NCBI GenBank assembly: GCA_964016885.1
Contig: OZ024749.1
Coordinates: 16,368,001 to 16,432,000 of the forward strand
Direction: 5' to 3'
Origin: Eledone cirrhosa
Taxonomy: Eukaryota
DNA: 64,000 bases
Shown here: in pieces, positions 1 through 64,000 of the stretch
How positions within the stretch are numbered: the stretch's first letter is position 1
Layout: every line of letters starts with the position of its first letter
Program-made: the position numbers and the translations under genes
Notes under the pieces: generated by a model
What the model was told of the DNA's origin: nothing
The model's database searches: none
What the model saw: the letters and a program-made list of their open reading frames with translations, nothing else

Positions 1-3000
1 CACCACACCACCACTAACACACCACTACCACTAACAACACCACTACCACTAACAACACCACTACCACTAACAACACCACTACCACTAACACCACCACCAC
101 CACTAACACCACCACCACCACTAACAACACCACTACCACTAACAACACCACTACCACAAAACACCACCACCACCACCACCACCACTAACAACACCAATAC
201 CACTAACAACCCACAACACCACCACCACCACTAACAACACCACTACCACAACACCACTACCACTACAACACCACTACCACTAACAACACCACTACCACTA
301 ACAACACCACCACCACCACCACCACTAACAACAACACTAACACACCACTACCACTAACACACCACTACCACTAACACCACAACTACCACTAACAACACCA
401 CTACCACTAACAACACCACCACCACTAACAACACCATAACCACTAACAACACCACTACCACTACAACACCACTACCACTAACAACACCACTACCACTAAC
501 ACCACCACTACCACTAACACACCACTACCACTAACAACACCACTACCACTAACAACACCACTACCACTAACAACACCACTACACAACCACCACTACCACT
601 AACACCACACTACCACTAACAACACCACCACACTAACAACACCACTACCACTAACAACACCACTACCACTAACAACACCACTACCACTAACACCACCACT
701 ACCACTAACAACACACCACACTAACAACACCACTAACACCACCACTACCACTAAAAACACCACTACCACTAACACCACCACTAGCACTAACAACACCACC
801 ACACTAACAACACCACTAACACCACCACTACCACTAACACCACCACTACCACTAACACCACCACTACCACTAACACCACCACTACCACTAACAACACCAC
901 TACCACTAACAGCACACTACCACTAACAACACCACTACACTAACAACACCACCACCACTAACAACACCACTACCACTAACAACACCACTACCACTAACAA
1001 CACCACTACCACTAACAAAACCACCACCACAAACAACACCACTACCACTAACACCACCACTACCACTACACCACCACTACCACTAACACCACCACTACCA
1101 CTAACACCACCACTACCACTAACACCACCACTACGACTAACAACACCACTACCACTAACAACACCACTACCACTAACAACACCACCACCACTAACAACAC
1201 CACTAACACCACCACTACCACTAACAACACCACTACCACTAACAACACCACCACGACTAACAACACCACTAACACCACCACTACCACTAACAACACCACT
1301 ACCACTAACACCACCACTACCACTAACACCACCACTAACACTAACAACACCACTACCACTAGCAACACCACTACCACTAACACCACCACTACCACTAACA
1401 GCACCACCACCACTAACAACACCACTAACACCACCACTACCACTAAACAACCACTACCACTACACACCACCACTACCACTAACAACACCACTACCACTAA
1501 CAACACCACAACAACCACCACCACTAACAACACCACTAACACCACCACTACCACTAACAACACCACTACCACTAACAACACCACCACCACTAACAACACC
1601 ACTACCACTAACAACACACCACCACCAACACCACTAACAACACCACTAACACACCAGTACCACTAACAACACCACTACCATAACAACACCACCACCACTA
1701 ACAACACCACCACCACTAACACCACCACCACCACTAACAACACCACTAACACCACCACCACCACTAACAACACCACTTCCACTAACAACACCACTACCAC
1801 TAACACACCACTAACAACACCACTACCACTAACAACACCACTACCACAACAACACACACCACTAACAACACCACTACCACTACACCACCACCACCACTAC
1901 AACACCACTACCACTAACAACAACACCACCACTAACAACACCACTACCACTAACACCACCACTACCACTAACACACCACTACCACTAACACACCACTAAC
2001 ACCACCACCACCACTAACAACACCACCACCACTAACACCACCACACCACTAACAACACCACTACCACTAACAACACCACTAACACCACCACCACCACTAA
2101 CAACACCACTACCACTAACACCACCACCACCACTAACAACACCACTACCACTAACACCACCACCACCACTAACACACCACTACCACTAACACCACCACTA
2201 CCACTAACACACCACTACCACTACAACACACAACACCACCACCACTAACAACACCACCACCACTAACACCACCACTACCACTAACAACACCACTACCACT
2301 AACAACACCACTAACACCACCACCACCACTAACACACCACTACCACAAACAACACCACCACTAACAACACCACTACCACTAACACCACCACCACCACTAA
2401 CAACACCACTACCACTAACAACAACACCACCACTAACAACACCACTACCACTAACACCACCACCACCACTAACAACACCACTACCACTAACAACAACACC
2501 ACCACTAACAACACCACTACCACTAACACCACCACTACCACTACCACTAACAACACCACTAAACACCACCACCACCACTAACACCACCACCACCACTAAC
2601 AACACCACCACCACTAACAACACCACTAACACCACCACCAACAACACCACCACCACTAACAACACCACTACCACTAACAACACCACTAACACCACCACCA
2701 CCACTAACAACACCACAACAACACCACTACCACTAACAACACCACCCCCACTACCACACCACAACACCACTAACACAACAACACCACACCACTACCACTA
2801 CCACACACACCACTACCACTAACAACACCACCGCCACACCACCACTAACAACACCACTAACAACACCACTACCACTAACACCACCACTACCACTAACAAC
2901 ACCACCACCACCACCACCACTAACAACACCACTAACAACACCACTACCACTACACACCACTACCACTAACAACACCACCACCACCACCACCACCACTAAC

Positions 3001-5960
3001 AACACCACTAACAACACCACTACCACTAACACCACCACCACCACTAACAACACCACTACAACACCACAACAACACCACTACCACTAACAACTCCACTACC
3101 ACTAACAACACCACACCACCACCACCTAACAACACCACTAACAACACACCACCACCACTAACAACTCCACTACCACAACACCACCACTAACAACACCACT
3201 AACAACACCACTACCACTACACCTCCACTACCACTAACAACACCACCACCACCACCACCACTAACAACACCACACAACACACACCACTAACAACACCACT
3301 ACCACTACACCACCACTACCACAACACCACCACACACCACACCACTAACAACACCACTACCACTAACACACCACCACCACCACCACCACCACCACTAACA
3401 ACACCACTAACAACACCACTACCACAACAACACCACTACCACTAACACCACCACTAACAACACCACTAACAACACCACTACCACAACACCCACTACCACA
3501 ACACCACCACTACAACACCACTACCACAACACCACCACACCACTAACAACACCACCACCACCACCCCACTAACAACACCACTAACAACACCACTAACACA
3601 CCACTACCACTAACAACACCACCACCACCACCACCACTAACAACACCACTAACAACACCACTAACAACTCCACTACCACTAACAACACCACCACCACCAC
3701 CACCACTACACACCACAAACAACACCACTACCACTAACAACTCCACTACCACTAACAACACCACCACCACCACCACCACTAACAACACCACTAACAACAC
3801 CACTACCACTACACACCCACAACCACAACAACCCACTACCACTAACACCACCACTAACAACACCACTACCACTAACAACACCACTACCACTAACACACCA
3901 CCACCACCACCACCACTAACAACACCACTAACAACACCACAACCACTAACACCACACTACCACTAACAACCACCACTACCACTAACAACACCACTACCAC
4001 TAACAACACCACCACCACCAACACCACTAACAACACCACTAACACCACCACTAACAACACCACTACCACTACAACACCACTACCACAACACCACCACCAC
4101 CACCACCACCACACCACACCACTAACAACACCACTACCACAACACCACCACTACCACTAACAACACCACTACCACTAACAACACCACTACCACTAACAAC
4201 ACCACCACCACCACCACCACTAACAACACACTAACACCACCACTAACAACACCACTACCACTAACAACACCACCACCACCACCACCACTAACAACACCAC
4301 TAACAACACCACTACCACTAACAACTCCACTACCACTAACAACACCACCACCACCACCACCACTAACAACACCACCACCACCACCACTAACAACACCACT
4401 AACAACACCACTAACAACTCCACTACCACTAACACCACCACCACCACCACCACCACTAACAACACCACTAACACACCACTACCACTAACAACACCACTAC
4501 CACTAACAACACCACTACCACTAACAACACCACCACCACCACCACCACTAACAACACCACTAACAACACCACCACCACCACCACCACCACTAACAACACC
4601 ACTAACAACACCACTACCACTAACAACACCACTACCACTAACAACACCACTACCACTAACAACACCACTACCACTAACAACACCACTAACAACACCACTA
4701 CCACTAACAACACCACTACCACTAACAACACCACTACCACTAACAACACCACTACCACTAACAACTCCACTACCACTAACACCACCACTACCACTAACAA
4801 CACCACCACCACCACCACCACTAACAACACCACTAACAACACCACTACCACTAACAACACCACTACCACTAACAACACCACTACCACTAACAACACCACT
4901 ACCACTAACAACACCACTACCACTAACAACACCACTAACACCACCACTACAACTAACAACACCACCACCACCACCACCACTAACAACACCACTAACAACA
5001 CCACTACCACTAACACCACCACTACAACTAACAACACCACCACCACCACCACCACTAACAACACCACTAACAACACCACTACCACTACAACACCACTACC
5101 ACTAACAACACCACTAACAACACCACTACCACTAACAACACCACTACCACTAACAACACCACTAACAACACCACTACCACTAACAACACCACTACCACTA
5201 ACAACACCACTACCACTAACAACACCACTACCACTAACAACACCACTACCACTAACAACACCACCACCACTAACAACACCACTACCACTAACAACACCAC
5301 CACCACTAACAACACCACTACCACTAACAACACCACTACCACTAACAACACCACTAACACCACCACTACAACTAACAACACCACCACCACCACCACCACC
5401 ACTAACAACACCACTACCACTAACAACACCACTACCACTAACACCACCACTACCACTAACAACACCACCACGACCACCACCACTAACAACACCACTAACA
5501 ACACCACTACCACTAACAACACCACTACCACTAACACCACCACTACCACTAACAACACCACTAACAACACCACTAACAACACCACCACCACTAACAACAC
5601 CTCTACCACTAACAACACCACCACCACTAACAACACCACTACCACTAACAACACCACTAACAACACCACCACCACTAACAACACCTCTACCACTAACAAC
5701 ACCACTACCACTAACAACACCACTAACAACACCACCACCACTAACAACACCACCACCACTAACAACACCACCACCACTAACAACACCACCACCACTAACA
5801 ACACCACTACCACTAACACTACCACTAACAACACCACCACCACTAACAACACCACTACCACTAACAACAACACTAACAACACCACCACTACTAACAACAC
5901 CACTACCACTAACAACACCACTACCACAATCACCAACACCAACAACAGTACCTCCTCCAA
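1..5960. repeat. Degenerate ACC/ACT/AAC satellite, commonest unit CCACTAACAACACCACTA (18 bp)
   Basis: Almost G-free + strand built from ACC/ACT/AAC triplets. Many single-base dropouts before ~4450; cleaner afterwards. Confidence 0.95.
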
Positions 5961-6051
5961 TTTGGCACCTGACCAGAAACATTCCCGCCATATTCACAGG
6001 AATACTGTAGCAATGTATGAATTACATGGTAGGTGTATAATTAGTACACTA

Positions 6052-7223
<1,172 letters not shown>

Positions 7224-8235
7224 TATTTAGAAACACACAGATACATGCGGACACACACATATATACATGAATGCGTCAGCACCCAACTGTGAGTTAAGGG
7301 TGCCAACTTCACCGATGTTGCTCAATGAATGACTGGGATAGACCAATTCAGTTGAACTAGACTGAACCAGTATCAGAGTTAAAAATACATTATGAAGAGA
7401 GAAGAAATAATTTAGATATAATTAGTAATAAAATGTATCATACCTAAACTGCTCCTAAATTCCTCGACTACGTAGTTTCGTGGCATAAACAAAAACAATA
7501 TATCATAAAGATATAGAGTCCTTGCGAGGTCTGCCGACTTATCAAGAGGATACCTCATTTTACTAGTCTCAAGAACGCGTCTACACGACGTGAGAAAGAA
7601 TCCCAAAAGGCGGAGGGGGAGACAGTCACGCGATATAACGGTCGAGAAACAGAGCTAAGCCTCTTATAACCCCGAAGAAAATACCACGGAGGCGGAGGGG
7701 GTATTTATATCGAGGCCGCAGAAGAGGGGGTGAAGAAGGCGAGAAGTATGAGTAATGGAAGCTTTCCAGCTGTCCCCAGACTTCAAAGATTGCTCGACCA
7801 GAGGGAGTTATTAACAATATATTTAGAAACACACAGATACATGCGGACACAGCTGGAAAGCTTCCATTACTCATACTTCTCGCCTTCTTCATCCCTCTTC
7901 TGCGGCCTCGATATAAATACCCCCTCCGCCTCCGTGGTATTTTCTTCGGGGTTATAAGAGGCTTAGCTCTGTTTCTCGACCGTTATATCGCGTGACTGTC
8001 TCCCCCTCCGCCTTTTGGGATTCTTTCTCACGTCGTGTAGACGCGTTCTGGAGACTAGTAAAATGAGGTATCCTCTTGATAAGTCGGCAGACCTCGCAAG
8101 TACTCTATATCTTTATGATATATTGTTTTTGTTTATGCCACGAAACTACGTAGTCGAGGAATTTAGGAGCAGTTTAGGTATGATACATTTTATTACTAAT
8201 TATATCTAAATTATTTCTTCTCTCTTCATAATGTA
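7224..8235 (-). mobile_element. Non-coding hammerhead-bearing foldback element (PLE-dependent/retrozyme-like), ~595-nt monomer
   Basis: Inverted arms 7387-7773 and 7849-8235. Sequence at 7225 recurs at 7821 (596-bp period). Flanked by (TA)n. Second copy at 60821-61845. Confidence 0.8.
8071..8160 (+). ncRNA. Type I hammerhead ribozyme motif, U3-A8 core variant
   Basis: TCCTC-TTGATAA-GTCGGCA...TGCCAC-GAAA-CTACGTAG-TC|GAGGA. Stem I is TCCTC/GAGGA, stem III is palindromic, cleavage triplet is GUC. Mirror copy on - strand at ~7461-7550. Confidence 0.7.
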
Positions 8236-8960
8236 TATATAAATGTATATATATATTATATATATATACATATATATATATAGTTATATATATAGACATA
8301 TATAGTTATATATATATTCATATATATATATATATATAGTTATATGTATATGTGTATGTGCATATATATATATATGTATATATATGCGTGCGTGTGTGCA
8401 TATAGGTGTGTATATAGGTATGTATACGCACGTGTCCTGTATTTAGTATATATCGATTTACTGCGTATAGATCTAAGTATATGTTAATCAGTACAATATG
8501 AACGTGTATATATATATATATATATATACATACACACACATATATACACACATACACACACATATATATATACACACACACACACATATATATACACTCA
8601 CACACATATATACACACACACACATACACACACACACACATACACAAACACACATATATAGATATATATATATATATATACACATACATACACAGATACC
8701 TACATACGTACATACATAAATACATACATAAGAATGTATATTTAGTCTAGCTGTGAATTTGTTATATAATTCTTCTTGCTTGTCCGTGAGTATATACACA
8801 CACACACACACACACACACATACACACACATACACACACACACACACATAAAGAGAGAGAGAGAGGGGGTATAAACCAATACATGGTTGAGTGCAGAGAC
8901 GACGCAATATATTAATGTTGTATTAACAGGGTTTTAGTTTCAATGCTATACTAGAATTCT

Positions 8961-10360: not shown

Positions 10361-11184
10361 TGAGGCATATGGACCTTAAAGCGATGAAATGCCTGGGACG
10401 GTTGGAGGGTCACTGATGAAGGACTTACCTTTTCATATGCCCCACCATTTGCAACGTGCAGCCATTATTATCATATTTACACATAATTTTTCTTCTGCTG
10501 CCACTCGTCTGTTCGTTACCTTTTACCCTTTCTAGCAGTCTCTCTCTCTGTTAGCCTCCTCCTCAACTTTCACTCACTCATTCTCTGTCACTACCTCTCC
10601 TCCTCCTCTTTCTTCCTCCTCCTTCAAGTTTGACCTGTGTGTAATTCTTTTCTCGCGCGGTCTTGACCAAGCTGGTATGGAAATTTTTTTCTCTCTCTCT
10701 CTTTCGTCTGCGACTTCACAAAACTTATGTTTACCGAATTCGTAGACCAGACCCCTTTATCTTCTTCTTCTTCTTCTTCTTCTTCTTCTTCTTCTTCTTC
10801 TTCTTCTTCTTCTTCTTCTTCTTCTTCTTCTTCTTCTTCTTCTCTCTCCCCCCCCCCGTTAGACTTGTGCGAAATTCTTTCCTTGCTCACATTTCAACCA
10901 GGTTTGATGGTCTTTTGTCTCTTGTTCACGATTTCACCGAGTTTATATTCATAGAGATCTGGGACTTGTCTATTTCTTCTCACTTTCCGTTGCTTAAACC
11001 TTTTTGTTTGTTACCCTGGCGTCCCCTTTCTTTACGTGTCCCAACGACTTTTTTTAGCCGTTGTTCGCACCAACCTGAGGCATATGGCCCTTAAAGCGAT
11101 GAAATGCCTGGGACGGTTGGAGGGTCACTGATGAAGGACTTACCTTTTCATATGCCCCACCATTTGCAACGTGCAGCCATTATT

Positions 11185-11188
<4 letters not shown>
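10361..11188 (+). mobile_element. Non-coding element with 113-bp direct terminal repeats (partial tandem, 715-bp period)
   Basis: 10361-10473 is nearly identical to 11076-11188. Pyrimidine-rich interior with (TTC)n. Ends in (TA)n. Related to 63345-64000. Confidence 0.75.
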
Positions 11189-11218
<30 letters not shown>

Positions 11219-11494: not shown

Positions 11495-13108
11495 AACAAC
11501 AATACTAAACCTATAATAGCAACAACAACAATACCAACACCAGCAACAACACTAACAACACCGCCAACCATAACACCAACACAAAAAAACACCCACGTTG
11601 ACCACAACACCAACATAAACAACACCATCATCAACAACATCTCCAACATCAACAATAGCAACAACAACACTAACAACGACACCAACAACGACACCAACAA
11701 CACTAACAACAATGTCAACAACACCAACAACACCACCAACATAATCAATAGCAACAACAACACTAACAACACTAACAACAACAACACTAACAACACTACC
11801 AACACTAACAACAACACCAACAACAACACTACTAACACTAACAACAATGTCAACCACAACACCAACAACACCACCAACACTAACAATAGCAACAACAAAG
11901 CTAACAACATCAACTACAACACCAACAGCAATACTACCAACACCACCACTACCAACACCACCAGCACTACCAACAACACCACTACTACCAACACCACCAC
12001 TACCAACACTACCACCACTACCACCACTACCAACACCACCAGCACTACCAACAACACCACTACTACCAACACCACCACTACCAACACTACCACCACTACC
12101 ACCACTACCAACACCACCAGCACTACCAACAACACCACTACTACCAACACCACCACTACCAACACTACCAACACTACCACCACTACTACCACTACCAACA
12201 CCACCAGCACTACCAACAACACCACTACTACCAACACCACCACTACTAACACTACCACCACTACCACCACTACCAACACCACCAGCACTACCAACAACAC
12301 CACTACTACCAACACCACCACTACCAACACTACCACCACTACCACCACTACCAACACCACCACTACTACCAACACCACTACTACCAACACTACCACCACT
12401 ACCACCACTACCAACACCACCAGCACTACCAACAACACCACTACTACCAACACCACCACTACCACCACTATCACAATACCACCACTACCAACAACACCAC
12501 CACTACCACAATACCACCACTACCAACACCACCACCATTACCACAATACCACCACTACCAACAACACCACCAACAACACCACCACTACCACAATACCACC
12601 ACTACCACCAACACCACCAACACTACCAACAATACCACCACTACCAACACTACCACCACTACCAACACCACCACCACTACCACCAACACCACCACTACCA
12701 ACAATACCACCACTACCAAAACTACCACCACCACGTCTACCAACAACACCACTACCAACACTACCACTACCACAATACCACCACTACCACCAACACCACC
12801 ACTACCACAATACCACCACTACCAACACTACCAACAACACCACCACTACCAACACCACCACCACTACCACCAACACCACCACTACCATAATACCACCACT
12901 ACCACCAACACCACCACTACCACCACCACCACTACCACCAGCACCACCACTACCACAATACCACCACTACCAACACCACCACCACTACCAACACTACCAC
13001 CAACACCACCACTACCACAATACCACCACTACCACCAACACCACCACCACCACTACCACCAACACCATCAACAACACCACCACTACCAACACCACTACCA
13101 ACATCAAC
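11495..13108. repeat. AAC/ACC/ACT low-complexity satellite with internal tandem units
   Basis: Direct reading; repeated TTTTNTTSTTNN-type units in the translation. Confidence 0.9.
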
Positions 13109-18415: not shown

Positions 18416-19080
18416 TGGTAGTAGTGATAGTGGTGCTAGTGGTGTAGCTCTATAGTGTTTGTGGTAGTGGTGATAGTGGTGTAGGTGATGGTCGTGATGG
18501 TGTATGACAATGGTAGTGGTAGTAGTGGTAAGGTTGTGGTTATAGTGCTGGTGCATGACAATTGTGGAGGTAGTTGTGGTGGTAGTGATAGTAGTGGTGG
18601 TAGTGGTAGTGGTGGTAGTAGTGGTAGTAGGGTTGTGGTTGTGGTGCTGGTGTATGTCAATTGTAGTGGTGGTAGTGGTAGAAGTGGTGGTAGTAGTGGT
18701 AGTGGCGGTAGTGGTAGTAGTGGTAGTGGTGGTATAGGGGTGGTAGTAGTGGTGGTTGTGGTGATATTGTACAGCAATAATAGTGGTGGTAGCGGTGGTT
18801 GTGGTGCTGGTGGTGCTATTGTACATCAGTGGTAGTAGTTGTGGTAGTGGTGGTAGTAGTGGTAGTGGTGGTATAGGGGTGGTAGTAGTGGTGGTTGTGG
18901 TGCTATTGTACATCAATGGTAGTAGTGGTGGTAGTGGTAGTGGTGGTACTATTGTACATCAGTGGTAGTGTTGATGCTGAAATGGTATAAGACATTCCAC
19001 AAGTACCGTTAACAACAAAACTATTTACCAGCAATCTCAAACACGTGCCATCAGCCTCCCCCTAATTTCCACGCCCCCTT

Positions 19081-19159
<79 letters not shown>

Positions 19160-19185
19160 TGTTGTAATAGTAGTAGTTGTTGTAA

Positions 19186-19241
<56 letters not shown>

Positions 19242-19287
19242 ACAGCAGCAGTAGTAGTAGTAGTGGTAGTAGTAGTAGTAGTAACAC

Positions 19288-19320
<33 letters not shown>

Positions 19321-22225
19321 CAGCAGCAGCAGTAGTAGTAGTAACAGTAGCAGCAGTAGTAGTAACAGCAGCAGCAGTAGTAGTAGTAACAGCAGCAGTA
19401 GTAGTAGTAGTAGTAGTAACAGCAGCAGCAGTAGTAGTAGTAGTAGCAGCAGCAGTAGTAGTAGCAATAGTAGTAACAGCAGCATTAGTAGTAGCAGTAG
19501 TAGTAACAGCAGCATTAGTAGTAGCAATAGTAGTAACAGCAGCATTAGTAGTAGCAATAGTAGTAACAGCAGCATTAGTAGTAGCAATAGTAGTAACAGC
19601 AGCATTAGTAGTAGCAATAGTAGTAACAGCAGCAGTAGTAGTAGCAATAGTAGTAACAGCAGCATTACTAGTAGCAATAGTAGTAGCAGCAGCATTAGTA
19701 GTAGCAATAGTAGTAACAGCAGCATTAGTAGTAGCAATAGTAGTAACAGCAGCATTAGTAGTAGCAATAGTAGTAACAGCAGCATTAGTAGTAGCAATAG
19801 TAGTAACAGCAGCAGTAGTAGTAGCAATAGTAGTAACAGCAGCATTAGTAGTAGCAATAGTAGTAACAGCAGCATTACTAGTAGCAATAGTAGTAACAGC
19901 AGCATTACTAGTAACAATAGTAGTAGCAGCAGCATTAGTAGTAGCAATAGTAGTAACAGCAGCATTAGTAGTAGCAATAGTAGTAACAGCAGCATTAGTA
20001 GTAGCAATAGTAGTAACAGCAGCATTAGTAGTAGCAATAGTAGTAACAGCAGCATTACTAGTAACAATAGTAGTAGCAGCAGCATTAGTAGTAGCAATAG
20101 TAGTAACAGCAGCATTACTAGTAGCAATAGTAGTAACAGCAGCATTAGTAGTAGCAATAGTAGTAACAGCAGCATTAGTAGTAGCAATAGTAGTAACAGC
20201 AGCAGCAGTAGTAGTAGTAGTAGCAGCAGCAGTAGTAGTAGCAATAGTAGTAACAGCAGCATTAGTAGTAGCAATAGTAGTAACAGCAGCATTAGTAGTA
20301 GCAATAGTAGTAACAGCAGCATTAGTAGTAGCAATAGTAGTAACAGCAGCAGTAGTAGTAGCAATAGTAGTAACAGCAGCATTAGTAGTAGCAATAGTAG
20401 TAACAGCAGCATTAGTAGTAGCAATAGTAGTAACAGCAGCATTAGTAGTAGCAATAGTAGTAACAGCAGCATTAGTAGTAGCAATAGTAGTAACAGCAGC
20501 AGTAGTAGTAGCAATAGTAGTAACAGCAGCATTAGTAGTAGCAATAGTAGTAACAGCAGCATTAGTAGTAGCAATAGTAGTAACAGCAGCATTAGTAGTA
20601 GCAATAGTAGTAACAGCAGCATTACTAGTAGCAATAGTAGTAGCAGCAGCATTAGTAGTAGCAATAGTAGTAACAGCAGCATTACTAGTAGCAATAGTAG
20701 TAACAGCAGCATTAGTAGTAGCAATAGTAGTAACAGCAGCATTAGTAGTAGCAATAGTAGTAACAGCAGCATTAGTAGTAGCAATAGTAGTAACAGCAGC
20801 ATTAGTAGTAGCAATAGTAGTAACAGCAGCAGTAGTAGTAGCAATAGTAGTAACAGCAGCATTAGTAGTAGCAATAGTAGTAACAGCAGCAGTAGTAGTA
20901 GCAATAGTAGTAGCAGCAGCATTAGTAGTAGCAATAGTAGTAACAGCAGCATTACTAGTAGCAATAGTAGTAGCAGCAGCAGTAGTAGTAGCAATAGTAG
21001 TAACAGCAGCATTACTAGTAGCAATAGTAGTAACAGCAGCAGTAGTAGTAGCAATAGTAGTAACAGCAGCATTAGTAGTAGCAATAGTAGTAACAGCAGC
21101 AGTAGTAGTAGCAATAGTAGTAACAGCAGCATTAGTAGTAGCAATAGTATTAACAGCAGCATTAGTAGTAGCAATAGTAGTAACAGCAGCAGTAGTAGTA
21201 GCAATAGTAGTAACAGCAGCATTAGTAGTAGCAATAGTAGTAACAGCAGCATTAGTAGTAGCAATAGTAGTAACAGCAGCAGTAGTAGTAGCAATAGTAG
21301 TAACAGCAGCATTAGTAGTAGCAATAGTAGTAACAGCAGCAGTAGTAGTAGCAATAGTAGTAACAGCAGCATTAGTAGTAGCAATAGTAGTAACAGCAGC
21401 ATTAGTAGTAGCAATAGTAGTAACAGCAGCAGTAGTAGTAGCAATAGTAGTAACAGCAGCATTAGTAGTAGCAATAGTAGTAACAGCAGCAGTAGTAGTA
21501 GCAATAGTAGTAACAGCAGCAGTAGTAGTAGCAATAGTAGTAACAGCAGCATTAGTAGTAGCAATAGTAGTAACAGCAGCAGTAGTAGTAGCAATAGTAG
21601 TAACAGCAGCATTAGTAGTAGCAATAGTAGTAACAGCAGCATTAGTAGTAGCAATAGTAGTAACAGCAGCAGTAGTAGTAGCAATAGTAGTAACAGCAGC
21701 ATTAGTAGTAGCAATAGTAGTAACAGCAGCAGTAGTAGTAGCAATAGTAGTAACAGCAGCATTAGTAGTAGCAATAGTAGTAACAGCAGCATTAGTAGTA
21801 GCAATAGTAGTAACAGCAGCAGTAGTAGTAGCAATAGTAGTAACAGCAGCATTAGTAGTAGCAATAGTAGTAACAACAGCAGTAGTAGTAGCAATAGTAG
21901 TAACAGCAGCAGTAGTAGTAGCAATAGTAGTAACAGCAGCAGTAGTAGTAGCAATAGTAGTAACAGCAGCAGTAGTAGTAGCAATAGTAGTAACAGCAGC
22001 AGTAGTAGTAGCAATAGTAGTAACAGCAGCATTACTAGTAGCAATAGTAGTAACAGCAGCATTAGTAGTAGCAATAGTAGTAACAGCAGCATTAGTAGTA
22101 GCAATAGTAGTAACAGCAGCAGTAGTAGTAGCAATAGTAGTAACAGCAGCATTAGTAGTAGCAATAGTAGTAACAGCAGCAGTAGTAGTAGCAATAGTAG
22201 TAACAGCAGCATTAGTAGTAGCAGC
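19081..22225. repeat. (TAG)n grading into a 30-bp minisatellite TAGTAACAGCAGCATTAGTAGTAGCAATAG (~90 copies)
   Basis: Two units per 60-base line over ~19470-22220. Confidence 0.97.
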
Positions 22226-41508: not shown

Positions 41509-41975
41509 TCAAGTAAGTATGTTTTGAAACAGTGAGCGAGTTTGAAATTAGAAAATATATAGCTTTCACCGTATTTTTGACTAAAGGAATTTTAGCCTGA
41601 TAACGGGGTTTAGAACCCTCAGATAAATGGAAAAAGATGAGTATTGACGTACATGGGAGTCGAACCCACATCTTTGGTTATCGCGACCACTGTGCTACCA
41701 TTACACCAACACATCACCATTCAAACACTCTTTCCATTCAAATTACTTACTTGCCATTTAAACTCGCTAAGAATGTAGTTTCTAATTTGAATGGAAAGAG
41801 ATGGGTGATGTGTTGGTGTAATGGTAGCACAGTGGTCGCGATAACCAAAGATGTGGGTTCGACTCCCATGTACGTCAATACTCATCTTTTTCCATTTATC
41901 TGAGGGTTCTAAACCCCGTTATCAGGCTAAAATTCCTTTAGTCAAAAATACGGTGAAAGCTATATATTTTCTAAT
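41509..41975. mobile_element. Foldback element carrying a tRNA-like cloverleaf in each arm
   Basis: Arms ~41547-41745 and 41785-41975, 38-nt left tail, (TA)n flanks. Confidence 0.8.
41807..41877 (+). tRNA. tRNA-like sequence (pseudo-tRNA/SINE head), nominal anticodon CGA
   Basis: Acceptor GATGTGT/GTACGTC-A, D arm GTGT-AATGGTA-GCAC, anticodon arm TGGT-CGCGATA-ACCA, T arm GTGGG-TTCGACT-CCCAT. Mirror copy at 41645-41715 (-). Confidence 0.6.
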
Positions 41976-48059: not shown

Positions 48060-49663
48060 TTTATGTTTATTGCCTCTGTGATTTGTCTAAACATTGCGTC
48101 TTTTCTGTGTAGATTCTATTTTTATTTCTATGTTTTCTAATTTACCCTTATGTTCTATTTTAGCATGTTGGTAGAGTACAGATGATTCTTTACTATCTTG
48201 AAGGTCTCGCCAGTGTTCATTTATCCGTTCCCCTATACTACGAGCTGTCTCACCTATGTACACTATATTTTTATCTCTACATTGTCCTTCAGTACATCTT
48301 ATGCTATATACTACATTTCTAGTTTTACAGTTAATATGGGGGCTTAATTTACAGATTATACATTTATTATCTATACAGGGAGGTCTTTGAAAAGTGTATG
48401 TATTGCTAATAAGTGTTTTTATGGAGGTACTTGGTCTTTCTACTATCTTAATATTGAGTTTATGTTTATCTGGGCCCTTCTAAATTTGTAAGCTAATTCA
48501 CCTCTAGGGGTTGTATCGATGAACATTACACTCTGGTATTTATTGCTATCATACCATGAGTTTATTCTATTAGCCTTATTCCTAGTTCTTTCTATTCTAT
48601 TCCAAAATTTGCTCCTATACAAGGGGCAGGTCCTATTTGTGTCATTATTTACCATTTTTCCCATTTGGTTCTGGCTCCTCTATACACTCTGATTTTATCT
48701 CTCTGATTGTAACCAGAGAACTGCATACGATGGATGAAGTGTTGTATGTGTCTCTCTAGTTCTTCGGGGTTGCACATGCGGGACACGTTTCTCATCAAAT
48801 CCGCAATCAGTATGTTGATTTTGGTATGGTCCGAAACAGCTGAGTTTCGGTGGATCAGATATTTGGAAGTCATGGGTTTGGTATAATGGAAATGGAGGAT
48901 TTGTTTTTTGTTATTAATGGTATCTAACCAGAGCTCTGTGTCTAGTACAGGTAATCGATGGTTGGGATGTTTGCTTGGGTAGTCTATAGTAACTCTAATA
49001 CTCTGGTGGATGGAGTTAGCTATTTGCTGGATGTTTTCCATTGTGTTTTTCTCTAATTCCTGAATGTTCTCTAGTGGGGGTGTTTTAACTACGATGTTTA
49101 TATCATCAACGTAGCGGGAGTACATTATCAGGGTTAAGGGGTTTTCTAATTGTTCTTTAAGTTTAAGTCTACTGTCCCACCATACCATGAATAGGTTAGC
49201 TATGTCGCCTGCAATGCTAACACCAATGGCTGCTCCCACCTCTTGGGCATATGTTTTTCCATTAAATTTGAACATATGTTCCTTAAGGGTTAATTTTATG
49301 CCGGCCCCCACCGCATGTGCAATCATTTTCTTTAGTTCATCGTGGTTTTCGGCTCTGGTCCACCCGTTCCATCTATCTGTGTGTGTTTTCTTGGCCATTG
49401 AGGTAATGGTAGGTGGTCTGCCTCTTGCTGGTCTTGTAGGGCACAGGTTGCTAATGTCATATGTGTCTAGATAATTATAACTATAGGTAAGTTTAAGTAG
49501 GAGTCTCAGCTCACTGGTATCAATCCCACGGAATTCAACATTGCTCTCACTGATCATTTCTACACATTTCTCCACAGTAAAAGCCACGTCAATAGATGGA
49601 TACAGGGATACAACATCCATACTACCTATTATGCAGTCTGTTAGGTCCCTAGATCGGTTACTC
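48060..49663 (-). pseudogene. PLE reverse transcriptase plus C-terminal GIY-YIG endonuclease, frameshifted
   Basis: GSMDVVSLYPSI, QEVGAAIGVSIAGDIANLFM, RYVDDI, LPVLD, YTKP; then CIDNKCIIC...CKTRNVVYSIRC...VYIGETARSIGERINEH...SVLYQH. Confidence 0.95.
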
Positions 49664-60795: not shown

Positions 60796-60820
60796 ATATA
60801 TTCTACATAATATATATTTA

Positions 60821-61845
60821 CATTATGAAGAGAGAAGAAACATTTAGATATAATTAGTAATAAAATGTATCATACCTAAACTGCTCCTAAATTCCTCGAC
60901 TACGTAGTTTCGTGGCATAAACAAAAACAATATATCATAAAGATATAGAGTCCTTGCGAGGTCTGCCGACTTATCAAGAGGATACCTCATTTTACTAGTC
61001 TCAAGAACGCGTCTACACGACGTGGGAAAGAATCCCAAAAGGCGGAGGGGGAGATAGTCACGCGATATAACGGTCGAGAAACAGGGCTAAGCCTCTTATA
61101 ACCCCAGTTCAACTGAATTGGTCTGTCCCAGTCATTCATTGAGCAACATCGGTGAAGTTGGCACACTTAACTCACAGTTGGGTGCGGATGCATTCATGTA
61201 TATATGTGTGTGTCCGCATGTATCTGTGTGTTTCTAAATATATTGTTAATAACTCCCTCTGGTCGAGCAATCTTTGAAGTGTGGGGACAGCTGGAAAGCT
61301 TCTATTACTCATACTTCTCGCCTTCTTCACCACCTCTTCTACGGCCTCGATATAAATACCCCCTCCGCCTCCGTGGTATTTTCTTCGGGGTTATAAGAGG
61401 CTTAGCCCTGTTTCTCGACCGTTATATCGCGTGACTATCTCCCCCTCCGCCTTTTGGGATTCTTTCTCACGTCGTGTAGACGCGTTCTTGAGACTAGTAA
61501 AATGAGGTATCCTCTTGATAAGTCGGCAGACCTCGCAAGGACTCTATATCTTTATGATATATTGTTTTTGTTTATGCCACGAAACTACGTAGTCGAGGAA
61601 TTTAGGAGCAGTTTAGGTATGATACATTTTATTACTAATTATATCTAAATGTTTCTTCTCTCTTCATAATGTATTTTTAACTCTGATACTGGTTCAGTCT
61701 AGTTCAACTGAATTGGTCTGTCCCAGTCATTCATTGAGCAACATCGGTGAAGTTGGCACCCTTAACTCACAGTTGGGTGCGGATTTATTCATGTATATAT
61801 GTGTGTGTCCGCATGTATCTGTGTGTTTCTAAATATATTGTTAAT
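60821..61845 (+). mobile_element. Second copy of the ~595-nt hammerhead monomer element
   Basis: 61106 recurs at 61701 (595-bp period). Inverted arm 60821-61105. Hammerhead at 61510-61599. Confidence 0.85.
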
Positions 61846-63301: not shown

Positions 63302-63344
<43 letters not shown>

Positions 63345-63349
<5 letters not shown>

Positions 63350-64000
63350 CAGAAGAAAGAAGAATACTGCGTGGTTTGCACACGGGTTACATATGATAAA
63401 AATAGTCCTTCGTCAGTGATTTGCCAACCATCATTGCTTTTTCATCACATTAAAAATCAGATACCTCAGGTTGGTGCGAGCAATAAGCTAAAAAAATAGT
63501 TATTGGGACCAGTAATCCCGTAAAGTGAGGGGGACAAGTGAACAACATAGAAAGATAAAAACAAACCAAAGAAAGAAAATAAACAAGCAACATGGTAGTC
63601 CTGGTCAGCATAAGCTGGGTGGATTTCATGAGCGAATAGTACAGACGTCCGACGTGAGTGAGATGTAAGCAAGAAAAGGCCCACTGTTAGCCAAGCGGGA
63701 GGAAGTGAGAAGGGGAGAAACAGAGAGTGAGTGAGTGGAAGTGCGAGGAAGCGGTCAGTCAAGAGAAAGTGTACCTGAACGAGGGGACGAAAGAAGGTGA
63801 GAGAAACAGAAAGCGGGGAAGCAGTAAGAGAGAAACAGACAAACGCAGCCGAGGTAAATATATATAAAAAACATGAGAAGAAAGAAGAATACTGCGTGGT
63901 TTACACACGGGTTATATATGATAAAAATAGTCCTTCGTCAGTGATTTGCCAACCATCATTGGTATTTCATCACATTAAAAATCAGATACCTCAGGTTGGT
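63345..64000 (-). mobile_element. Direct-repeat element (525-bp period), diverged relative of 10361-11188
   Basis: 63351 recurs at 63876. The - strand shares CGCACCAACCTGAGG...GATGAAA...GGTTGG...TCACTGA.GAAGGACT. Confidence 0.7.

Follow-up and report, generated by a model that had tools for sequence, protein, structure and literature searches.

A conserved motif in a repeated, non-coding element of Eledone cirrhosa reads, from its sequence, as a hammerhead ribozyme whose blocks stand in the non-circular order S-G-C. The motif was analyzed in a window of 64,000 nucleotides (the whole stretch of contig OZ024749.1 from position 16,368,001 to 16,432,000, forward strand), which holds two copies of the element, and in copies from the rest of the genome. 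The host elements have a retrozyme-like anatomy. A fuller reading, on which our judgment is evenly balanced, is that this is jointly the first non-circularly permuted hammerhead of an animal genome, a four-strand type-SGC form in which a junction replaces stem II, a derivative of the minimal hammerhead of Penelope-like elements (PLEs), and the driver of a retrozyme family of more than 10,000 copies.

Elements in the window

The two elements lie on opposite strands, and element 2 runs beyond the window edge (Table 1). Self-comparison bore out the direct-repeat periods of 715 and 525 nt given in the preliminary description: in element 1, positions 10361-10473 recur at 11076-11188 with one mismatch in 113 nt (at 10373), and the repeats of element 2 differ at 4 of 160 nt. 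Every sequence block listed in that description was found in both elements, in the order given there, while their interiors, which had been called different, are rather diverged homologues (global identity of the two families in the window, 46%). The family of element 1 comprises 25 natural units of 632-806 nt. The longest ATG ORF of its window unit is 75 aa, and pyrimidine-rich sequence lies ahead of the 3' repeat on the ribozyme strand.

The 5' repeat of element 1 is without the GTCC/hairpin/TCGC/CCAACC part (the upstream junction and pseudoknot strands) and its stem I is interrupted by the mismatch at 10373. Of the two predicted ribozymes of element 1, one is complete and the other truncated; of those of element 2, one is intact and stem III of the other is broken. 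Release of a monomer is clear for neither copy. In the subfamily of element 1 the TCATATG(CC) block could pair across the cut site, as an off-fold. The (TA)n tract that follows element 1 is likely to be its insertion target site.

Table 1. Features of the two elements, in window coordinates
Feature	Position	Strand	Basis or remark
Element 1: non-coding retrozyme-like repeat, partial tandem of one 715-nt unit + 113 nt	10361..11188	+	sequence comparison
5'-truncated repeat of element 1; blocks S, G and C kept	10361..10473	+	predicted cut 10369/10370
Pyrimidine-rich non-coding interior with (TTC)n tract	10474..11037	+	
Complete predicted type-SGC hammerhead, split stem II	11038..11139	+	alignment, covariation
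5' extension: GUCC + hairpin + UCGC	11038..11068	+	
GUCC of 5' extension		+	putative pairing with 11136-11139
Hairpin of 5' extension	11042-11063	+	covarying
UCGC of 5' extension		+	putative pairing with 11096-11099
Pseudoknot strand CCAACC	11070..11075	+	partner GGUUGG at 11115-11120
Block S: stem III strand GGCA, U16.1, H17 (11084), stem I strand UGGCCCU	11079..11091	+	
Predicted cut in block S	11084/11085	+	
Block G: GCGA, U11.1, GAAA (11101-11104), stem III strand UGCC	11096..11108	+	
Block C: stem I strand AGGGUCA, CUGAUGA (11128-11134), A10.1, GGAC	11121..11139	+	
TCATATG(CC) block	11148..11156	+	common 3' end of copies via microhomology with (TA)n
(TA)n tract adjoining 3' end of element 1	11189..11215	.	
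Element 2: second subfamily, 525-nt period, onward to about 64315	63343..64000	-	(TA)n on both sides
3' ribozyme copy of element 2; H17 = C at 63460	63405..63509	-	two substitutions, stem III broken
5' ribozyme copy of element 2, intact; H17 = C at 63985	63930..64000	-	start at about 64034, outside window

The source genome is of 3.0 Gb and microsatellite-rich, and in the window long arrays of (ACC/AAC/ACT)n and of related trinucleotides occupy 1-6000, 11500-12500 and 18979-22000. Two identical tRNA-like sequences (41 bits each in Rfam) form an inverted pair at 41645-41877 and are likely to be copies of a tRNA-derived SINE. Two related elements with near-perfect inverted repeats of 287-350 nt are present at 7379-8242 and 60819-61673, and degraded, distant PLE-like RT/endonuclease fragments (25-29% identity to the protein of PLE copy L342) at 48141-49272 on the minus strand.

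Identification of the predicted ribozyme

Positions 11038-11139 were folded as GGCA-U-A / UGGCCCU (block S, the slash marking the cut), GCGA-U-GAAA-UGCC (block G) and AGGGUCA-CUGAUGA-A-GGAC (block C), with stem III formed by GGCA and UGCC, stem I by UGGCCCU and AGGGUCA, and A10.1 paired with U11.1. The cleavage site (AUA or AUC) comes first, GAAA second and CUGANGA last, which is the type-SGC order. CTGATGA and GAAA had been noticed before, with the statement that no valid hammerhead could be folded; one does fold once this non-circular order is permitted, and the earlier failure is explained by S-G-C not being a circular permutation of hammerhead types I-III. Of the candidate new ribozyme or structured RNA that had been proposed, the structured RNA stands and the new ribozyme class gives way to a hammerhead in S-G-C order.

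The core letters (CUGANGA, GAAA, U16.1-A15.1 and an H17 other than G) are present in 97-100 of 100 copies at each position. The sole variable core positions are N7 (U in 64, C in 36) and H17 (A in 59, C in 41, never G), which are the positions at which the hammerhead rules permit variation. The R10.1-Y11.1 pair is formed in all 100 copies (A-U 78, G-U 15, G-C 7), and the core is bordered by stems I and III, both of them covarying. The helix by which type-SGC ribozymes tie stem I to stem II at their far sides is found in CCAACC/GGUUGG, the 5' strand of which is upstream of block S and the tie of which to stem II goes through a putative UCGC/GCGA helix.

The Rfam search that had been suggested as a check returned nothing relevant over the element, either at the gathering score or at E<=10. 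RNAfold and RNAalifold missed the fold and recovered only the hairpin and stem I, pseudoknots being beyond energy minimisation.

Alignment and covariation

The alignment held 101 copies from one genome, 100 of them distinct: the two window copies, one from locus L234, and 98 near-full-length copies among the 103 distinct ones listed, five having been dropped as re-trimmed repeats of places already in. In the 34-pair model 94.5% of 3,398 cells are paired, as against 27.5-47.2% when the model is slid by 1-3 columns. The covariation score was 0.200 against 0.119 for shuffled alignments, none of 500 shuffles equalling it. The covariation that the preliminary description had asked for was obtained in several helices, with changes on both sides in 4 of 7 pairs of stem I (92.0% paired), 1 of 5 of stem III (96.6%), 4 of 7 of the hairpin, and 1 of 6 of the pseudoknot, to CCAACG/CGUUGG. 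These four took four of the top six places when the 24 possible helices of at least 4 pairs were enumerated over the alignment. In 67 of 100 copies the core, both of its flanking stems (I and III), pair 10.1-11.1, UCGC/GCGA and the pseudoknot are all intact.

Three pairings had been proposed earlier. CCAACC/GGTTGG was upheld (96.8% of cells paired, 7 compensatory copies). G(C/T)GAT/(G/A)TCAC has one pair broken in 91 of 100 copies, and for GGCATATG/CATATGCC the 12 commonest combinations listed include only 6 distinct copies with every pair formed.

These values are drawn from about seven related subfamilies of a single genome, and the covariation filter was passed by 39 of 698 non-model column pairs as against 10 of 11 model pairs, which are not independent of one another. 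Since many copies were retrieved by patterns requiring the core letters, conservation of the core is partly built in; loci retrieved through the 5' half alone likewise retain the core, and certain unpaired non-core columns equal it in conservation.

Stem II

Pair 1 of stem II is Watson-Crick or G-U in 100 of 100 copies, and pairs 2-4 are formed in only 2%, 1% and 9%. As the continuous stem II of type-SGC (the first pair and 2-6 more) is missing, the motif is regarded as a variant and not as a member of HRIMA-1. Two upstream strands would supply the continuation: UCGC can pair with GCGA (98.3% of cells; in 9 copies a G-C pair has become G-U) and GUCC with GGAC (92.5%), 7 copies of one subfamily being offset by one column. 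Both helices are nearly invariant and therefore show no real covariation, and in the enumeration they rank among chance 4-bp helices; the covarying hairpin sits exactly between the GUCC and UCGC strands. From this conservation and geometry we infer, as the continuation of stem II, a four-way junction of A10.1-U11.1, GGAC/GUCC, the hairpin and UCGC/GCGA. With its 5' strand placed after UCGC and its 3' strand ahead of stem I, the pseudoknot would hold stems I and II together, presumably tying their far ends as in other hammerheads.

Alternatively, stem II may be continuous and irregular (AGGAC/GCGAU, with purine mismatches), the 5' GUCC and UCGC being accessory. The first pair (100%) and the fifth (90% Watson-Crick) would fit such a stem, which stays with the three-block scheme of Eckert et al. 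(2023), and the available text of PMC3088659 records natural hammerheads with a stem II of 1-2 bp. It would, however, contain three non-pairs in succession, and both the pairing frequencies of UCGC/GCGA (with its G-C to G-U changes) and GUCC/GGAC and the exact position of the hairpin speak against it. We consider it improbable and retain the four-way junction.

Pattern matches in the genome and elsewhere

There are three exact matches to CCAACCTGAGG in the window, against 0.29 expected with one mismatch allowed. The exact S + G + C pattern has 10,528 matches in the 3-Gb genome (reversed control, 0) and the exact G + C block pattern 9,727 (reversed control, 1). A filter for stems I and III was passed by 44 of 72 genomic pattern matches, by none of the 80 viral matches examined (of 105 found) and by none of 84 prokaryotic ones. 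Three matches came from metagenomes, none with a fitting block C as judged by eye, and the viral, prokaryotic and metagenomic matches were all taken as chance. Among 24 sequencing runs listed, 3 are recorded as RNA, each with a word share of 0.06, and the two runs of RNA type that were examined gave 0 contigs. An unclassified entry for the repeat may already exist in Dfam or Repbase.

Element anatomy and junctions

A set of 37 natural units fell into six families of 521-806 nt with 42-45% GC. Across the six family representatives, identity was 75-97% in the motif as against 46-83% in the interiors. The units are non-coding, carry one hammerhead each and occur as partial tandems or in tandem arrays of up to 9, as in metazoan non-LTR retrozymes; the type I hammerhead and 150-450-nt unit of the latter are replaced by a type-SGC hammerhead and 521-806 nt. 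The earlier designation as retrozyme-like is thereby sustained for the partial-tandem, non-coding units with 5' truncation and 3' ends at (TA)n.

In 94 of 98 terminal copies GAAA is followed, at no more than 130 nt, by (TA)n with n of at least 5, against a background of 25%. The 3' ends fall at several AT-rich points, e.g. TTCAT/AT. The 5' ends are scattered among 104 junctions, 53 of which are at (TA)n, 22 at an inverted copy, 2 at an inverted PLE and 27 at other sequence. In the two PLE cases (loci L073 and L106) the element is fused directly to a PLE that is inverted and 5'-truncated, host DNA being absent from the junction, and a third, indirect fusion was seen at L091/L092. The 5' truncation, inverted 5' copies, partial tandems and (TA)n target are all those of a non-autonomous PLE derivative; the available part of PMC8557442 gives as hallmarks of PLEs a bias towards (TA)n, partial tandems, and 5'-truncated copies in inverted orientation.

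An ordinary TRIM/LTR element, which the preliminary description named as the outcome that would overturn its reading, or a box C/D K-turn RNA, which it offered as an alternative, is very improbable. The window copy of element 1 does begin with TG and has direct repeats, and GTGATGA and CTGA are present in element 2. Against this, both ends vary between copies (98 3' and 104 5' junctions) instead of having fixed TG..CA termini with 4-6 bp TSDs, the flanks are (TA)n and not short TSDs, and arrays reach 9 units. RUGAUGA occurs in only 9 of 100 copies, which does not place the motif among box C/D RNAs, and the absence of a relevant Rfam match likewise counts against this alternative.

Position of the 5' ends

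Raw starts at +1 numbered 24, against 11, 12 and 5 at +2, +3 and -5, and in a second group 26 against 4. With the flanks read by eye, 21 of the 23 shown at +1 were true ends, against 3 of 10, 5 of 12 and 4 of 5 at the same three positions. The 5' ends were nevertheless rejected as an in vivo sign of cutting, there being no pile-up at the predicted cut against the controls at +4 (30 raw starts, about 26 true) and -8 (26 raw starts; of the 25 shown, about 17 were true; 6 of 7 in a separate check). Start counts track T microhomology with (TA)n, and so the test lends no support to cleavage. In 20 inverted pairs there is a deficit of upstream starts (7 of 40 ends), subject to the same confound.

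The 5' ends would also suit a motif that is hammerhead-shaped and catalytically weak or inactive, kept mainly as a signal at which the PLE RT binds or primes, with spread from long read-through RNA rather than from cut circles. PLE minimal hammerheads are poor cleavers in vitro according to the available text of PMC4209133, and CUGAUGA-A-GGAC/GUCC is common to the PLE motif and the S-G-C motif. Yet H17 is only A or C, N7 varies freely, and compensatory change has maintained both stem I and stem III, a pattern which selection on catalysis would produce and which argues against this explanation; we hold it to be unlikely, if the least so of the alternatives considered, and prefer an active ribozyme.

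Proposed relationship to Penelope-like elements

PLE copies with uninterrupted frames of 822-828 aa were found at L341-L343; their 3' region is long and rich in C and A, and a minimal hammerhead stands at the 3' side. First-look candidates numbered 30,480 genome-wide. The ORFs, which from their CxxC linker we take to be Neptune-like, contain RT and GIY-YIG-type motifs, RVT_1 being matched only below cut-off and GIY-YIG weakly. Minimal type I hammerheads of the form CUGANGA-A-GGRC-loop-GYCC-GAAA number 12,045 genome-wide. The commonest among the first 100 listed, CUGAUGA-A-GGAC-UAGC-GUCC-GAAA, matches block C and the GUCC strand, including the extra A, with about 16 letters in common; PLE motifs carry this extra A (PMC4209133, available part). 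Our hypothesis, drawn from this likeness, is that the S-G-C motif descends from the PLE minimal hammerhead. The CUGAUGA-A-GGAC/GUCC arm of the latter would have been retained, and the whole retrozyme would be its loop in the circle.

A short element with the same commonest minimal hammerhead is present in L091 (5241-5367, minus strand, and 5793-5890, plus strand) and may be the closest relative of block C. Locus L344 (G000:C3:316703500-316711500, minus strand) has three hammerhead-like motifs with their blocks ordered as in type I. Two of these have the same sequence, at a distance of 487 nt, and the locus is probably an ordinary non-LTR retrozyme of the same genome. Spacings of 2.9 kb in L091/L092 were considered as a motif-framed autonomous PLE and turned out to contain the inverted 5'-truncated PLE. 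Within 30 PLE loci and four longer stretches, representing one PLE family, no autonomous PLE had the S-G-C motif in its own terminal repeat, and only the CUGANGA-A-GGRC/GYCC block was common to that family's terminal repeat and the element.

Proposed mobilization

The S-G-C hammerhead repeat probably works as a retrozyme, which would cut itself, circularize and be reverse-transcribed by a PLE into (TA)n. A tandem or read-through transcript would be cut at each ribozyme, after AUA or AUC, and the monomer ligated into a circle. The PLE RT/endonuclease, acting in trans, would nick (TA)n and prime at an AT-rich position immediately beyond the ribozyme; copying once or more round the circle would give partial tandems, such as 715 + 113 nt, and priming off both strands head-to-head pairs. 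In the available parts of the sources, such a cycle has been proposed for PLEs (Cervera 2014, PMC4209133) and circles have been demonstrated for type I retrozymes (PMC7229834).

The ribozyme might be real and the mobilizer something other than a PLE, either a LINE that targets TA repeats or an RNA-to-RNA rolling circle with occasional integration. No PLE with the full motif was found in the family examined, direct PLE fusions account for only 2 of 104 5' junctions, both element types insert in (TA)n anyway, and LINE fragments adjoin some loci. The inverted 5'-truncated copies, the partial tandems, the variable 3' ends at AT microhomology and the lack of poly(A) are, on the other hand, PLE-like, as are the junctions at L073 and L106 without host DNA between the elements. 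This explanation has little probability in our view, and mobilization by a PLE is preferred.

Comparison with known systems

Type-SGC hammerheads (HRIMA-1 and variants) were described by Eckert et al. 2023 (PMC10085705) as 583 sequences, from metatranscriptomes only and none from genomes of known organisms; in the available text the authors leave open the evolution and role of non-circular permutations. Their search pattern (CUGAUGAG...CGAAA with 2-6 further stem II pairs) and Rfam both miss the present copies because stem II is one pair followed by the putative junction. A search of the accessible literature did not bring up any non-circularly permuted hammerhead from an animal genome or retroelement, and the designation type-SGC occurred in one paper. 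The available parts of a 2026 preprint (Li et al., 10.64898/2026.07.22.740005) and of PMC13725137 give animal retrozymes as type I, as the preprint does, or cite Eckert alone for alternative permutations. PMC13725137 also mentions variants with additional helices, with three references, and the accessible part of one of these (PMC10162972) contains nothing resembling the S-G-C motif.

If our reading is true, it breaks the rule that animal retrozymes are type I hammerheads and shows one route by which non-circular RNA permutations evolve. The evolution and role of such permutations become testable, since more than 10,000 animal copies stand beside a plausible ancestor, the PLE minimal hammerhead. 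As the split stem II hides the whole family from Rfam and from published descriptors, 'hammerhead-less' retroelements merit a rescan, and such motifs may be hidden in further animal retroelements. Eight Naiad families are scored 'HHR_half_core', with GAAA 35-50 nt either side of CUGANGA (PMC8557442 supplement S1, of which two of the eight rows, both nematode, were viewed), and may be further non-circularly permuted hammerheads.

The S-G-C order, all core letters, a short linker from stem I to block G (4 nt, typically 3 in the published type) and a helix that connects stems I and II at their far sides are shared with the type-SGC of the available text of PMC10085705. The E. cirrhosa repeat differs from it in being animal genomic DNA with more than 10,000 copies, in a stem II of one pair, mostly A-U, followed by a putative four-way junction with two upstream strands, and in a pseudoknot 5' strand upstream of block S. 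With PLE pseudo-LTR minimal hammerheads (PMC4209133, available part) it shares CUGANGA, the extra A, the GGAC/GUCC helix, (TA)n targets and inverted structures; these are type I, without stem III and active as dimers, whereas the S-G-C motif has a stem III of 4 bp plus U-A, GAAA upstream, and GUCC followed by CAA and not by GAAA. The parts available of PMC7229834 and 10.64898/2026.07.22.740005 describe metazoan non-LTR retrozymes that are likewise non-coding, tandem and of low GC (42-45% in the present repeat), with a PLE link, one hammerhead per unit and no LTR structure. These are type I with 150-450-nt units, and their circular RNA has been demonstrated (PMC7229834); the present repeat is type-SGC with 521-806-nt units and a predicted circular RNA.

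Judged by all of these features together, the repeat resembles a type-SGC hammerhead retrozyme, yet misses one defining feature each of HRIMA-1 and of the non-LTR retrozymes. Plant LTR retrozymes carry type III hammerheads in units of 600-800 nt, with fixed LTR ends and 4-bp TSDs; the E. cirrhosa repeat is like them in its comparable unit size and direct repeats, and unlike them in its variable ends, its lack of 4-bp TSDs and its ribozyme topology.
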